The translations under genes and the position numbers were made by a program. The notes under the pieces were generated by a model that saw only the letters and a list, made by a program, of their open reading frames with translations, was not told where the DNA came from and did no database searches. A stretch of 45,970 bases of DNA from Candidatus Latescibacterota bacterium. GTDB taxonomy: Bacteria; Latescibacterota; UBA2968; GCA-2709665. The stretch lies in assembly GCA_963667175.2 (NCBI GenBank), contig CAXXXF010000009.1, forward strand, positions 1-45,970, read 5' to 3'. This document shows, one piece after another, positions 13,592 through 18,819 of the stretch. Each line of letters begins with the position of its first letter. Positions within the stretch are counted from its first letter, which is position 1.

Positions 13592-14758
13592 CTACGCCAG
13601 TTTCCGCGCGGCAGCCTTAAGGGCTTCCGCCTTGTCCGTACGTTCCCAGGTAAACCCTTCCTCTTCCCGGCCGAAATGTCCGTAGGCGGCAGTGCGTTTA
13701 TACACCGGACGCAGCAGATTGAGAGACCGGATGATGCCGGCCGGCCGCAATTCGAAGTGCGAACGGATCAGCGTCGAAATATCGGCTTCGCCGATCGTAC
13801 CCGTACCGAACGTATCCACCACGATCGACACCGGCTCCGCCACCCCGATGGCGTAGGCCAGCTGCACCTCGCACCGGCTGGCGAGGCCGGCCTTCACCAC
13901 GTTCTTTGCGACGTAACGCGCGGCATAGTGCGCGCTCCGGTCGACCTTGCTGGGATCCTTTCCGGAGAATGCCCCGCCGCCGTGCCGTCCCACGCCGCCG
14001 TACGTATCCACGATGATCTTCCGGCCGGTCAACCCCGTGTCTCCGTGGGGTCCGCCAACCACAAATCGCCCGGTGGGGTTGACGTGATAGACCGTGTCGC
14101 CGTCGAGGTAACGCGCCGGGATGACCTCCTTGACGACGTGCTCGATCATATCGCGGCGGATTCGGCCGTGGCACACGTTCGGGTCGTGCTGCGTGGAAAT
14201 CACCACCGTGTGCACGCGCACGGGCGTGTCGTCCTCGTACTCCACGGTGACCTGCGACTTGCTGTCAGGGCGTAGATAGGGAAGCGTTCCGCTGTGGCGG
14301 AGCCCCGCCAGGGCCATCACCAGCTTATGGGACAGCATAATGGGCATCGGCATCAACTCGGGCGTCTCCCGGCAGGCGTACCCGAACATCATGCCCTGGT
14401 CGCCCGCGCCCTGCTCTTCGTGCAGGCCCTCGCCCTCCGTCACGCCCTGCGAGATGTCGGGCGACTGCGTATGCAGTGCGAGCAGCACGCCGCAGGAGTG
14501 GTGGTCGAATCCGTACGCCGAGTCCGTATATCCGATGCATCGAATAACGTCTCGCACAAGTTCCTGTATATCCACCCGGGCTTCCGTGGTCACCTCGCCC
14601 GATACGATCACCTGCCCCGTGGTCACCATGGTCTCGCACGCAACGCGCGACCGGGGGTCCTCTTCCAGCATTGCGTCCAGGACCGCATCGGAAATCTGAT
14701 CGCAGATCTTGTCCGGGTGGCCCTCGGAGACCGATTCTGAGGTAAATAAGCGCCGCAT
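13592..14758 (-). CDS. metK: S-adenosylmethionine synthetase
   Basis: [35 protein letters not shown]. Confidence 0.98.
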
Positions 14759-14889
14759 GAATGCCTCTTTTCCTGTCACAGGAATTCCGAAAATGCCCGC
14801 GATCTCGGGTGTACGCCCGTTTTATCGCTCAGAAGCTACTTAGAAAATAACCTTTCAGATTTCGAAGAATCCTGTTGTTTTTCTTTTAT

Positions 14890-16230
14890 TTAAGCAGCTT
14901 GTAGCGTAAGCGCAACGTTGTACCCCAACTTTTCCAGGCGATGGGAGAGCCGAGAGACAACGTCGTGTTTCTTGCGCTGATCGAAATAGTTGCTGCCCGG
15001 ATCTTGATAGGGTTGTGTGTGACAGGCCATATGATAGGCGGCTGTGAGAATGGAATGAGCCACTGCCACCAAGGCGCGTTTCTTGCCCCGTCGTGCGGCC
15101 AACCGACGATAGAGAGCGGACAGATAAGTGTCTTTGGTGCGCGAGGCCGCCCAGGCCGCCTGGACGAGGGCAAGACGCAACGCAGGATTGCCTTTGGTGG
15201 TGCGCCCCGATTGACGTTTCCCTGCGCTTTCATGGTTTCCAGGCGCTAAGCCGACCCAGGAGGCCAGATGCCGGTGGGTGGGGAAGCGGCCCATATCCAC
15301 GCCCATTTCGGCCACCATAACCTCGGCCACGGTCTGGTTGACGCCAGGAATCGTATCCCACAAGGCCATGGCCTGATTGGGAAGGAGCCGAGAAGCTTGC
15401 GCAGGCTTGGACGAGGCGGCGGTTGGTGACTGCGCAGGCTTGGGCGAACCGCCCGAAGGAGGCTGCGGGTCTTTTGGGGGCACACCCATCGCCTCAATGT
15501 GTTGAGCGATCTGGTCGGACAGCTGAGAAAGTTGTGTTTCCAGAAAGTCCAGATGCACCAGCAAGTGGCTCAACAAAAAGCGATGGTGGGGTCGGAAAAA
15601 GCCGGTCAGCGCCTGCTCTAGGTCGGCCTTCTTGTTGCGCAAGCGGCCCTTGGCCAACTCCGCTAACGCTGCTGGATCTTCCTGGCCTTGGATGAGCCCT
15701 TTTAGTATGGCCCGACCCGACACGCCCAGCGTATCGCTGGCCACACTGGACAGCTTGATGTTGGCGCCCTCCAAAGCCTTCTGCACCCGATTGATCACCC
15801 GGGTGCGCTCCTGCACCAATGTGGTGCGATACCGCGTCAGATCACGCAAATCCCGCTGGAGGGCAGGGGGGATAAAGCTCGCTTTGAGCAAGCCGTGTTG
15901 CAGCAGCCCGGCCAGCCACTCAGCATCCCGGACATCGGTCTTGCGTCCTGGCACCTGTTTGACGTGCTGCGCATTGACCAGCAAGACTTCAAAGTTGGCT
16001 TCCAGCACGTTGAAGATGGGCTTCCAATACTCGCCGGTGCTTTCCATCGCCACGTGGGTGCAGCCCCACTGAGAAAGCCAATCGCTCAACGCCAGCAACT
16101 GCCGGGTCATTGTGGAGAAGGTCTTTACCTCTCGCCGGCTCGGCTTTGACCCTTCGGCCTTCATCCGGCAGGCAACGACCGTCTTTTTGTGGACATCCAA
16201 ACCAGCGCAACAAGGGTAGATGACATGCAT
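14890..16230 (-). CDS. IS110-family DEDD recombinase/transposase
   Basis: GLDVHKK, AMESTG, KTDVRDA (DEDD), IPGV, HESAGK catalytic-serine region; RBS GGAGG upstream. Confidence 0.97.
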   Translation of the reverse strand: MHVIYPCCAGLDVHKKTVVACRMKAEGSKPSRREVKTFSTMTRQLLALSDWLSQWGCTHVAMESTGEYWKPIFNVLEANFEVLLVNAQHVKQVPGRKTDVRDAEWLAGLLQHGLLKASFIPPALQRDLRDLTRYRTTLVQERTRVINRVQKALEGANIKLSSVASDTLGVSGRAILKGLIQGQEDPAALAELAKGRLRNKKADLEQALTGFFRPHHRFLLSHLLVHLDFLETQLSQLSDQIAQHIEAMGVPPKDPQPPSGGSPKPAQSPTAASSKPAQASRLLPNQAMALWDTIPGVNQTVAEVMVAEMGVDMGRFPTHRHLASWVGLAPGNHESAGKRQSGRTTKGNPALRLALVQAAWAASRTKDTYLSALYRRLAARRGKKRALVAVAHSILTAAYHMACHTQPYQDPGSNYFDQRKKHDVVSRLSHRLEKLGYNVALTLQAA

Positions 16231-16487
16231 CGCAGGCCTCCTGTGTCTGATCCGGCTGGTCGGGTATCTGCTGGGATAAGAGTCTACTTGGCGGGCTCTC
16301 CCTTTACAGGGGGCGACAATAATGGATACCTCCAGATACCCAGGTCCAACTGTTTTTCAGGCTCATAGCACCATCTACAAAACGACCTTCGACCAGCCAA
16401 GGGTTATGGTGGCCAACAACCTACCACACAAGTCTGTTGACGCAACCATTTTCATCATTATGGGTGCCCCAAAGGGGCATGACAACT
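16231..16487 (-). ncRNA. Putative IS110 bridge RNA region
   Basis: Nested stems GGCTGGTC/GACCAGCC, GGTC/GACC and GGGTATCTG/CAGATACCC enclose two internal-loop hairpins. Located in the non-coding end upstream of the recombinase. Confidence 0.65.
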
Positions 16488-16681
16488 GTATTGAAATCAC
16501 TGGCGAGTTCCCGAGCGCGAGCGAAGAAGCGACGGTTATGAGGCGCGAGGGGCGCGCAACGCCGACGGGAAAGTCCGCCCATATCTAGAGATACGGGTGG
16601 ACTTGACCAACGCAGACCGGCGCTTTTGCAGCCGCCTGCCTTGCCTGCGGCAGCAGGCAGGCGCGAAGACCGCTGGGGATT

Positions 16682-18466
16682 TTAAGACAGCTTCTCGAGT
16701 CCGGCTGGCACTTTTTCCAGGTTGTCCTGTGTCTTCCGGGGTTGCACTTTCGCCAGCGCGGCGTACAGGTATTCCCGAATGGCGCCTCTGGTATGCAGGG
16801 CCAGCACCTCGTCAGCCAGCCCTCTCGCCTCTTCCATGGTGATCGACCGAATCGCCTGTTTGATCTCCGGAACCATACGCGGGCCGACGCTGAATCCATC
16901 GACTCCGAGCCCCATCAACAGAACGCAACTGTGCGGGTCGCCCGCCATCTCCCCGCAGACCGTTACCGGGATGCCGTGCCGGCGCCCTGCGGCCACCACC
17001 GACTTGATCAGGCGCAATACAGCGGGATGAAACGGATCGTACAGGTAGGCCACCCGCTCGTTGCCCCGGTCCACCGCGAGAGTGTACTGGACAAGATCGT
17101 TGGTGCCTATGCTGAAAAAACTCACCTCGCGCGCCAGCTGATCCGCCACCACGGCCGCGGAGGGCACCTCGATCACCGCGCCCACCTCGCAACCCTCGTC
17201 GAACGGCACGCCGGTCCGCTTCAGTTCGTCACGGGCGTCGCCCAGCACCGACTTGGCCTCCATCAGTTCTTCCACGCCCGATATCATCGGGAACATCAGC
17301 TTTACGTTTCCGTGTGCGCTGGATCGGAGGATGGAGCGCAACTGAATCCGGAACAGGTCTCTGTTGGCCAGGGAATGCCGGATGGCGCGCCAGCCCAGAA
17401 ACGGGTTGGTCTCTTCGTCGCCATGCGAGGCGTGCTCCAGCTTGTCTCCGCCCAGGTCCAGCGTGCGAACCACCAGCGGATGGGGCGCCATCTGTTCGGC
17501 AAGGCGTGTGTACGCCGCCGTCTGTTCGTCTTCGCCGGGCAGACTCGATCCGGCAAGGTAAAGGTATTCGGTACGAAACAGGCCGACCCCCTCAGCGCCA
17601 TACGCCAGTGCGGACCGTCCCTCTTCCGGCAATTCGATGTTTCCCTGGAGGCACACGCGAACGCCGTCCAGGGTTTCGGCGGGCACATTGGTGAACTTCA
17701 GCAACCCCTTCTGCAATTCCGTGAACCTGCTGGCTTCGGCGCGGTACCGGCCGAGCGTCTCCGAGTCGGGCCGGATATAGACCAGCCCGCGATTCCCGTC
17801 CACAACCGCGGTATCGCCCGGCTCGGCCGATGTCAGGGCCGCCTCGACACCCACCACCGCCGGAATCTCCAGCCCTCTCGCAATAATGGACGCATGCGAC
17901 GTTGCCGCGCCCGCTACGGTGACCACGCCCAGCACGCTGTCGCGCTTCATGCGGGCTGCCTGGGAGGGTGTCAGCTCGTGAGCGATCACGATTGCCGGGG
18001 CGGTCATCCCATCCAGCAACGGGTCTTCCCGCCGGCACAATCTCGCCAGCACCCGTTTCTCAACGTCCAGGATGTCAGCGCGCCTGGCCCTGAAATACTC
18101 GTCCTGGATCGCCTCGAATTGCCGGCGAACCTTCTGAAGGGTCAGCCAGAACGCATATTCCACGTTCACCCGATCCTTGCGGACCGAAGTCAGGGTGGGC
18201 CCCTGCAGGGCCGGGTCTTCCAGGATCGTCAGGTGTGCGTCGAATATCTGGGCGTGTTCCGGCCCCAGGTTCTCCTCGACCCGGGCGCGCGTGCCCTTCA
18301 GATCTTCCGCGACGGAAGCCAGCGCATCCTGAAACCGTCTCACCTCGCCCTCGACCTCATCGTCCGAGATGCGCCGGTAGTCCACCCACGGCTCTTCCGG
18401 GTCGTGAAGATAGACCGGACCGATGGCGATGCCATTCGACGCCTGGATGCCTTCCATTACCTTCAT
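16682..18466 (-). CDS. ptsI: PEP-protein phosphotransferase (PTS enzyme I)
   Basis: TSHASIIAR phospho-His, GVGLFRTE, RTLDLGGDK, NPFLGWRAIR, SIGTNDLVQY, CGEMAGD. Confidence 0.97.
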   Translation of the reverse strand: MKVMEGIQASNGIAIGPVYLHDPEEPWVDYRRISDDEVEGEVRRFQDALASVAEDLKGTRARVEENLGPEHAQIFDAHLTILEDPALQGPTLTSVRKDRVNVEYAFWLTLQKVRRQFEAIQDEYFRARRADILDVEKRVLARLCRREDPLLDGMTAPAIVIAHELTPSQAARMKRDSVLGVVTVAGAATSHASIIARGLEIPAVVGVEAALTSAEPGDTAVVDGNRGLVYIRPDSETLGRYRAEASRFTELQKGLLKFTNVPAETLDGVRVCLQGNIELPEEGRSALAYGAEGVGLFRTEYLYLAGSSLPGEDEQTAAYTRLAEQMAPHPLVVRTLDLGGDKLEHASHGDEETNPFLGWRAIRHSLANRDLFRIQLRSILRSSAHGNVKLMFPMISGVEELMEAKSVLGDARDELKRTGVPFDEGCEVGAVIEVPSAAVVADQLAREVSFFSIGTNDLVQYTLAVDRGNERVAYLYDPFHPAVLRLIKSVVAAGRRHGIPVTVCGEMAGDPHSCVLLMGLGVDGFSVGPRMVPEIKQAIRSITMEEARGLADEVLALHTRGAIREYLYAALAKVQPRKTQDNLEKVPAGLEKLS

Positions 18467-18558
18467 CGGTATGCAGCCCTTCGAGTGGGAGGGAATCCCG
18501 CGATGTCGTGCGGCGCGCCGGCCGGCGGATTCCGAATACCGGTTACCGGTGCGGAACG

Positions 18559-18819
18559 TCAATCGAATTCGCCCTCGATCATCCGCACGATTTCGTCCAG
18601 CGCTTCCTCTTCATCCGGCCCCGCGGCACGGACGCGAATTGTGGAGTCCGTCTCCGCGGCAAGCATCATCACGCCCATGATGCTCTTCCCGTTGACTTCG
18701 ATCCCATCCTTGATCAGGGTAATCTCCGATACAAACTTCGCGGCCGCCTGCACAAGAAGGGCCGACGGCCGCGCATGGATACCCAACCTGTTTTTCACCG
18801 TGGCTTGTCGTTCCGCCAT
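18559..18819 (-). CDS. ptsH: HPr phosphocarrier protein
   Basis: GIHARP (His15) and NGKSIMG (Ser46). Confidence 0.96.
   Translation of the reverse strand: MAERQATVKNRLGIHARPSALLVQAAAKFVSEITLIKDGIEVNGKSIMGVMMLAAETDSTIRVRAAGPDEEEALDEIVRMIEGEFD

Follow-up and report, generated by a model that had tools for sequence, protein, structure and literature searches.

Organization of the metK–ptsI locus

The window analysed here is a 45,970-nt stretch of Candidatus Latescibacterota bacterium (contig CAXXXF010000009.1, assembly GCA_963667175.2; genome G000 below), and the subject is an insertion sequence (IS) of the IS110 group that lies within the terminal inverted repeat of a MITE (miniature inverted-repeat transposable element). 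Both elements occupy the spacer that separates metK from ptsI (window 14780-16681; Table 1). The IS is nested in the left inverted repeat of the MITE at a CT core dinucleotide, found at 14836-14837 and again at 16486-16487, and the inserted unit is 1,650 bp whether it is read as 14836-16485 or, equally, as 14838-16487. As the initial annotation had proposed, excision at the common CT rebuilds the MITE end; the inverted partner of this rebuilt end lies at 16678-16695, one base longer than first described, and the two ends match at 16 of 18 positions as read from the sequence. The MITE proper (14832-14835 plus 16486-16694) is 213 bp, close to the ~215 bp estimated at the outset, a size that uninterrupted copies flanked by 3-bp duplications bear out. 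The IS core falls on MITE bases 5-6, leaving four tip bases outside, so the placement of the IS near the MITE tip also stands.

Several lines of evidence indicate that the nesting is not a chance arrangement. The same IS ends recur at all eight insertion sites in G000, and uninterrupted MITE copies exist in that genome (three) and in the related genome G006 (one). These findings remove two possible objections to the initial annotation, namely different IS ends elsewhere and a lack of any uninterrupted MITE. A pattern for the MITE end gives 16-262 matches in genomes G000, G008, and G014 as against 0-1 for its reversed control. Finally, two metagenome runs (X1 and X2) have contigs in which this same locus contains the MITE and no IS.

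Table 1. Features of the metK–ptsI region (window positions) and copies of the IS and its derivatives elsewhere in G000 (contig and position)
Feature	Position	Strand	Remarks
metK, intact left neighbour	13592..14779	-	96% identical to closest relative (G009) up to 14830
Left copy of 3-bp MITE target duplication	14829..14831	.	Single copy in G009 empty site
Outer tip (4 bases) of MITE left inverted repeat plus CT core, severed by the IS	14832..14837	+	
IS110-group IS	14836..16487	-	Core counted at both ends; unit 1,650 bp
Short IS right end	14838..14889	-	Last eight bases, core included, copied in the predicted RNA (7/8)
Recombinase gene	14890..16230	-	446 residues; Pfam PF01548 and PF02371; match to IS621 recombinase
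Long IS left end	16231..16487	-	257 nt; predicted to encode bridge-type RNA
Second internal (donor-binding) loop, predicted, with closing stem	16262..16341	-	2-4 compensatory changes per pair at five stem pairs
Loop 2 3' strand word	16284..16291	-	Copies IS right end and core
Loop 2 5' strand word	16319..16328	-	Copies IS positions 22-31 (subterminal left end)
First internal (target-binding) loop, predicted, with closing stem and distal hairpin	16343..16387	-	Compensatory stem changes in L002, L007, L008, L012
Loop 1 3' strand, strong target guide	16348..16356	-	Copies five flank bases, core, and first two IS bases
Loop 1 5' strand, weak guide for flank adjoining right end	16373..16382	-	
Sigma-70-like promoter (predicted)	16457..16485	-	Wholly inside left-end tip; 10/12 hexamer positions, 17-nt spacer
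MITE remainder	16486..16694	+	Core, rest of left inverted repeat, body, right inverted repeat
ptsI	16682..18562	-	Last codons and stop now within MITE right inverted repeat
Right copy of 3-bp MITE target duplication	16695..16697	.	Matches left copy at 2/3 bases
IS copies	C9 (window copy), C6, C4 (first site), C14		
IS copy	C15:871916-873312		Internal deletion of 255 bp (IS positions 427-681); part of recombinase gene lost
IS copy	C3		Cut at contig end
IS, second C4 site	C4:85138-85296		Partial second copy, 159 bp, in tandem
IS, C2 site	C2:256751-260052		Head-to-tail dimer with a single common CT; same joint as a circle would have
Mini element	C3:37039-37245		
Mini element	C16:134332-134527		
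Mini element	C15:818834-819013		
Mini element	C6:456556-456761		
Mini element	C1:5682-5880		
Mini element	C10:53998-54162		

Three allelic states of the locus

The locus is preserved in nature in all three states expected of a stepwise history. In the closest relative, G009, with flanks 96% and 94% identical to those of the window, position 14830 is joined to 16695 and neither the MITE nor the IS is present. Among six further genomes of the genus, five have both flanks and no MITE homology between them, and in the sixth (G004) the locus lies at a contig edge. The same empty state is found in metagenome contigs from runs X6 and X8, where 14827 is joined to 16695 with one other letter between. 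The contigs from X1 and X2 join 14835 directly to 16486; they differ from the window at four of about 450 flank bases and at 0-1 positions in the MITE part. Given empty sites, sites with the MITE only, and the window with both elements, the order of events is not in doubt: The MITE arrived first, and the IS then inserted exactly at the core. The assembly may itself derive from one of the metagenome runs, so the variation amounts to polymorphism within a population rather than independent replication.

Arrival of the MITE altered the neighbouring gene. The ptsI protein now ends in five residues and a stop contributed by the MITE right inverted repeat (16682-16697); in G009 this place is taken by two different residues and a stop of its own. 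The window stretch is found mainly in sponge and marine metagenome runs (X1-X9) from several studies, and the host is therefore probably a sponge-associated bacterium.

The insertion sequence and its recombinase

The initial assignment of the gene product to the IS110-family recombinases proved sound. Residues 9-156 match the N-terminal DEDD (RuvC-like) domain PF01548 (E 7.1e-34), residues 292-374 match the C-terminal Tnp domain PF02371 (E 8.1e-24), and its best relative of solved structure is the IS621 recombinase, 8wt6 (E 1.4e-13). The published catalytic residues of IS621 are D11, E60, D102, D105, and S241. The catalytic Glu, the Asp..Asp pair, and the Ser of the window recombinase align with chain 8wt6_A; the first catalytic Asp falls beyond the aligned stretch, and an Asp is found at residue 12, within the Pfam match.

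The noncoding left end of the element is 257 nt as against 52 nt for the right end. In the IS110 group the left end is much longer than the right and holds the RNA, according to PMC11208160. The long left end and the RNA structure within it place the element in the IS110 group and not in IS1111. By eye the two ends are unlike each other, the element lacks terminal inverted repeats, and CT stands at both junctions of every copy. In metagenome contigs the IS joint skips 1,650 bases and can be placed at either of two positions. A joined-end sequence was found only as the head-to-tail dimer on contig C2, and contigs cannot separate a circle from such a dimer.

The IS region was compared by BLAST with the window's own genome, G000 (18 contigs, 5.52 Mb). 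The eight insertion sites carry copies that are 97.6-100% identical, and a short-word search added a solo IS right-end fragment on C6, which provides a ninth IS-derived left flank. Most of the eight sites adjoin a long open frame on one side only. A 33-bp in-frame deletion (IS positions 1041-1073, window ~15415-15447) is found in the copies on C4 (83521-85139) and C14 and also in an IS contig from run X6; it falls in a low-complexity linker between the two recombinase domains. As part of the explanation favoured below, the IS is probably a young and active IS110-group element with a DEDD/serine recombinase.

The MITE family

The element split by the IS is short (213 bp), noncoding, and bounded by terminal inverted repeats. 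Uninterrupted relatives are present in G000 on C13, C16, and C3, each flanked by 3-bp duplications as judged by eye, with partial relatives elsewhere in the genome. A full-length intact copy, the best match in G006, is 84.5% identical over 213 columns; it was considered as a possible orthologous locus and rejected, as it lies at a different locus. All 14 genomes of the genus contain this MITE family, and so do 16 of the 18 genomes searched elsewhere in the bacterial family.

MITE ends were counted with a 17-base degenerate pattern allowing up to two mismatches, with the reversed pattern as control. The counts were 16 in G000, 20 in G009, 67 in G015, 219 in G008, and 262 in G014, with four of these genomes belonging to the genus and spanning 16-262; beyond the control values given above, the reversed pattern reached up to 4 in G015. 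In G008 the matches are paired about 150-200 bp apart, and in many copies the ends are perfect over 17 bases. The inverted repeat bears, at MITE bases 5-11, a motif made of the core and the five bases that follow it.

Target sites in the window's genome

In G000, MITE ends hold two of the eight IS insertions: The copy in the window (contig C9) lies in the left end of a full MITE and the copy on C6 in the right end of a truncated one, both in the same orientation relative to the MITE repeat. Resemblance of the six other sites to the MITE is confined to the core and, in the five whose right flank is known, the next five bases on the right. Across the seven sites with a known right flank, the same five bases follow the core in six, and the window copy matches at four of the five. 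Left flanks are variable: The four-base MITE tip is present in three of nine (C9, C6, and the solo right-end fragment on C6), and a second, loose class is common to three others.

Mini elements and MITE ends in relatives

Six nonautonomous elements of about 200 bp in G000 have both IS tips and neither the gene nor recognizable guide loops. One of the six adjoins a MITE-like end. There are also many decayed fragments from the right-end side of such mini elements in this genome, and many of these have the MITE tip to the left of the core. Across the 31 genomes searched, the full IS is found only in G000, the next recombinase match being 36% identical and in G009, while the last ~46 bases of the IS left end are present in 11 of the 14 genomes of the genus and in G015.

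Forty mini-element places were taken from the relatives, 39 of them with a recognizable tip, and their flanks were classed by eye. In 11 related genomes, 25 of the 39 mini-element ends run directly into a MITE end, at the same position; the remainder comprise 3 with a tip-like start only, 1 tandem joint, and 10 that are unrelated. Both types of MITE end carry mini elements, whose sizes range from about 160 to 660 bp, and in most places with an identified opposite tip the left flank terminates in the MITE tip. In G009, with only 20 MITE-like ends, two of three mini ends are in MITE ends.

A candidate bridge RNA in the IS left end

The left end is predicted to encode a two-loop RNA. It would be transcribed from the predicted promoter within the left-end tip; no second site of this kind lies in 14700-16800, and shuffled sequences have 0.6 on average. 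The upstream regions of 37 homologous loci were compared, from Chloroflexota, cyanobacterial, planctomycete, and other assemblies, with proteins no more than about 64% identical. A two-loop structure is conserved in the aligned upstream regions. RNAalifold on 16 sequences gives 28 pairs, 16 of them with compensatory changes and both closing stems included, and the G-U pairs are consistent with the gene strand. In both loops (16343-16387 and 16262-16341) the long DNA-copying strand is on the 3' side. A fraction of 0.07-0.08 of the sampled words of the stretch is present in RNA runs X17-X20.

Guide strands were scored in the window element and 24 homologues. The loop 1 3' strand covaries with the target flank: Its own pairs score 7.32 of 9 as against 3.92 for cross pairs, the match is perfect in 15 of the 25 elements, and the five poorest pairs, at 2-3 of 9, are cases in which the alignment is shifted by one base. 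Since this strand copies the flank in the window element and the homologues, target choice looks RNA-guided, in keeping with the initial annotation. The loop 1 5' strand covaries weakly. In a fixed register against the right-end flank, own and cross pairs did not differ (2.83 versus 2.45 of 8), while a local score gave 4.55 for own and 3.45 for cross pairs (permutation share 0.0013, 11 homologues). In register against the nine IS-derived left flanks of G000, it averages 3.0 of 8 as compared with 1.92 for the 729 sites in that genome that have the core-plus-five motif, a difference that is suggestive only.

Loop 2 covaries with the donor. In 11 of 14 homologues, the eight-base word of its 3' strand picks out a conserved right-end motif that lies downstream of the recombinase gene. 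On the 5' strand, own pairs score 7.36 of 10 as against 5.64 for cross pairs, and none of 20,000 permutations reached the observed mean. The left-end tip also holds a palindrome (window 16466-16478) that is kept with changed letters in homologues, and the ten bases behind it are those copied in the loop 2 5' strand (16319-16328). Such an arrangement hints that some of the donor sequence is read from behind a hairpin.

Two left-flank classes could in principle reflect two RNA variants, that is, natural reprogramming. This idea was rejected because the left end is identical in all full G000 copies save for IS position 67, and only one guide is therefore present in the genome.

MITE ends as a recurrent landing site

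The explanation we favour, with a probability of roughly 0.65, is that MITE ends are a recurrent but not exclusive landing site for this IS lineage. The 213-bp MITE settled over the final codons of ptsI, duplicating 3 bp, and the IS then recombined at the CT core, which lies four bases into the left inverted repeat. Most of the target choice would fall to the loop 1 3' strand, whose nine bases correspond to the flank of the IS left end (five), the core (two), and the start of the IS (two); its partner strand would contribute weakly, giving a target guide with one strict and one loose half. MITE ends recur as landing sites because the MITE repeat bears the core-plus-five motif at its bases 5-11, and ends with this motif would serve both the IS and its small nonautonomous derivatives across the genus. 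The nesting, the sequence of the two insertions, the precise ends, the covariation between guide and flank, and the repeated use of MITE ends are shown. The left-end RNA is probably made and probably guides recombination, and MITE ends may be preferred beyond the short motif. It is plausible that a MITE with an IS in its inverted repeat can no longer move.

Several observations weigh against this explanation. Six of the eight IS insertions in G000 are outside MITE ends. The core-plus-five motif occurs at 729 sites in this genome, and the 8 of these that also have MITE-like left four bases are unoccupied. The window target itself has one mismatch to the strong guide strand; the IS-free X2 contig has the same letters at this point, which dates the mismatch to before the insertion. 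With the MITE tip the loop 1 5' strand reaches a score of 3, as compared with an average of 3.45 for cross pairs and with 5 for the C14 flank. For the relatives, the 25 of 39 rests on classification by eye, and some mini flanks are near-identical between genomes and may each be one event, which brings the independent events below 25. Survival of insertions in neutral DNA may also explain some of the enrichment at MITE ends. As for the RNA, a search of Rfam returned no match to the left end (the sole hit, at E 0.3, is a chance match outside the element), and a single-sequence fold of the left end is no stabler than shuffled sequences (z -1.18). The structure was therefore taken from the alignment.

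The initial annotation went further and proposed that the IS is programmed against the MITE end. Recurrence at MITE ends stands, in two of eight IS copies, one of six mini elements, and 25 of 39 ends in relatives. Programming as such goes beyond the evidence, because most autonomous insertions are elsewhere, because the fit of the loose guide strand to the MITE tip is no better than chance, and because MITE ends are perhaps over-represented among survivors as neutral sites. Insertion of copies into unrelated sequence, which would speak against programming, was found in part, as the six other sites share only the core and five bases with the MITE. A stronger form of the proposal takes the MITE inverted repeat as the full cognate target and the six other insertions as off-target or half-matches. 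The MITE tip is indeed found in three of nine IS-derived left flanks and in many decayed mini fragments, as compared with only 8 of the 729 motif sites; a majority of mini ends in relatives are in MITE ends; and, by eye, the 5' guide strand equals the MITE tip at three of its four core-proximal bases. Yet that strand fits the tip no better than it fits unrelated pairs, six non-MITE sites were used against two MITE sites despite 16 MITE-like ends in G000, and the mini elements of relatives were perhaps moved by a different autonomous element, with the full IS in only one of the 31 genomes. We consider such dedicated targeting rather unlikely, though it is the most serious competitor.

The association in relatives could also have come about by copying of a composite, a MITE with a mini element inside, as one unit. 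Several flanks in G003 and G004 are very alike, and left flanks consist of the MITE tip and then sequence that varies, the pattern that movement of whole composites would give. The use of both left-type and right-type MITE ends, the wide range of mini sizes, and two identical IS copies in G000 in different MITEs (one full and one truncated, at opposite ends) are hard to square with it, and a split inverted repeat should hinder movement of a composite. Composite copying is accordingly very improbable. The reading that there is no MITE at all, with the 213 bp being part of the IS or a chance inverted repeat, is refuted: Other IS copies stop precisely at the core and lack this sequence, and the 213-bp element stands alone in G000 and the rest of the 14 genomes of the genus, and at the same locus in X1 and X2.

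Taken as landing sites that recur and are not exclusive, MITE ends could be part of a larger scheme that we offer as speculative and, in its entirety, doubtful. It would be a genus-wide, three-level hierarchy of mobile DNA in sponge-associated bacteria, in which a MITE family spreads, an IS lineage has a guide tuned to the MITE inverted repeat as a safe harbour and splits and disables each MITE it enters, and derivatives of the IS ride on the same guide. The bridge RNA in this scheme would place the long guide strand of each loop 3', opposite to IS621, with part of the donor read behind the terminal palindrome.

Relation to known IS110-family elements

The element shares several features with IS621 of E. 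coli, its best relative of solved structure. Both have a DEDD and serine recombinase. In PMC11208160, IS621 is described with a long left end encoding a two-loop RNA that copies target and donor around a CT core, and with a dispersed repeat as its natural target. There are also differences. The recombinase here has 446 residues as compared with 328 in the solved IS621 chain, with about 135 extra residues between the domains. The predicted promoter is wholly within the left end, whereas in IS621 it spans the joined ends, and the long sense-copy strands are on the 3' side of the loops, whereas those of IS621 are on the 5' side (both as given in PMC11208160). This difference in layout is an apparent one only and may be real or a matter of convention; if it is real, the subfamily widens the known design space of bridge RNAs. 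One donor strand here copies a subterminal segment behind a terminal palindrome, and the target is a MITE inverted repeat and not a repetitive extragenic palindromic (REP) sequence, the repeat used by IS621. IS621 and ISPpu9, with their REP targets, and IS4321 and IS5075, with transposon inverted repeats as targets, are the nearest precedents.

Insertion inside the terminal inverted repeat of another transposon is a feature shared with IS4321 and IS5075, although the target here is a MITE and theirs are autonomous elements. Those two elements insert in one orientation at a fixed position within the terminal inverted repeat of autonomous Tn21-family transposons. Their preference for transposon terminal inverted repeats was reportedly described by Partridge and Hall in 2003. 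Elements of the IS1111 family are likewise said, by Post and Hall in 2009, to target the recombination sites of integron cassettes. Such cassette-site elements resemble the present case in using a multicopy landing site in mobile DNA and differ in subgroup and in the kind of site. IS4321 and IS5075 also belong to the IS1111 group, for which the RNA is predicted in the right end and long subterminal repeats are described (PMC11208160).

ISPpu9 and ISPpu10 of Pseudomonas putida are IS110-family elements aimed at a multicopy repeat, in their case REP, according to PMC12288879. The same source describes MITEPpu9 as a nonautonomous derivative of ISPpu9 that carries its end sequences, and the six mini elements of G000 are of this kind. 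The mini elements here differ in that they are without a recognizable small-RNA gene and are found genus-wide, with the autonomous IS in one genome only.

Targeting of dispersed repeats by the IS110 family is thus already known (PMC11208160). In the literature covered, which was partial, no description was found of an IS110-family element inside a MITE end, and the target tables of PMC11208160 may hold one. The present case adds a MITE inverted repeat to the multicopy sites used by the family, where REP repeats, transposon ends, and integron cassette sites were known before. It also offers a natural example of guide behaviour, with one loop strand faithfully copied from the flank in 25 elements and the other loose. 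Insertion sites that share only half of the expected target bear on the specificity of bridge recombinases as tools for genome writing.

Other repeats in G000

Two further kinds of repeat were seen in the window's genome. Short purine-rich modules occur in more than 50 places, often as arrays (e.g., C15 868400-869200, C6 497100-497500, and C4 341000-341600); some overlap with the right-end side of the mini elements is seen, and the first C4 copy of the IS is bordered by them. Another family of repeats, about 265 bp long, gives more than 40 matches (e.g., C4 37249-37514 and C3 500901-501044) and is unrelated to the IS or the MITE.

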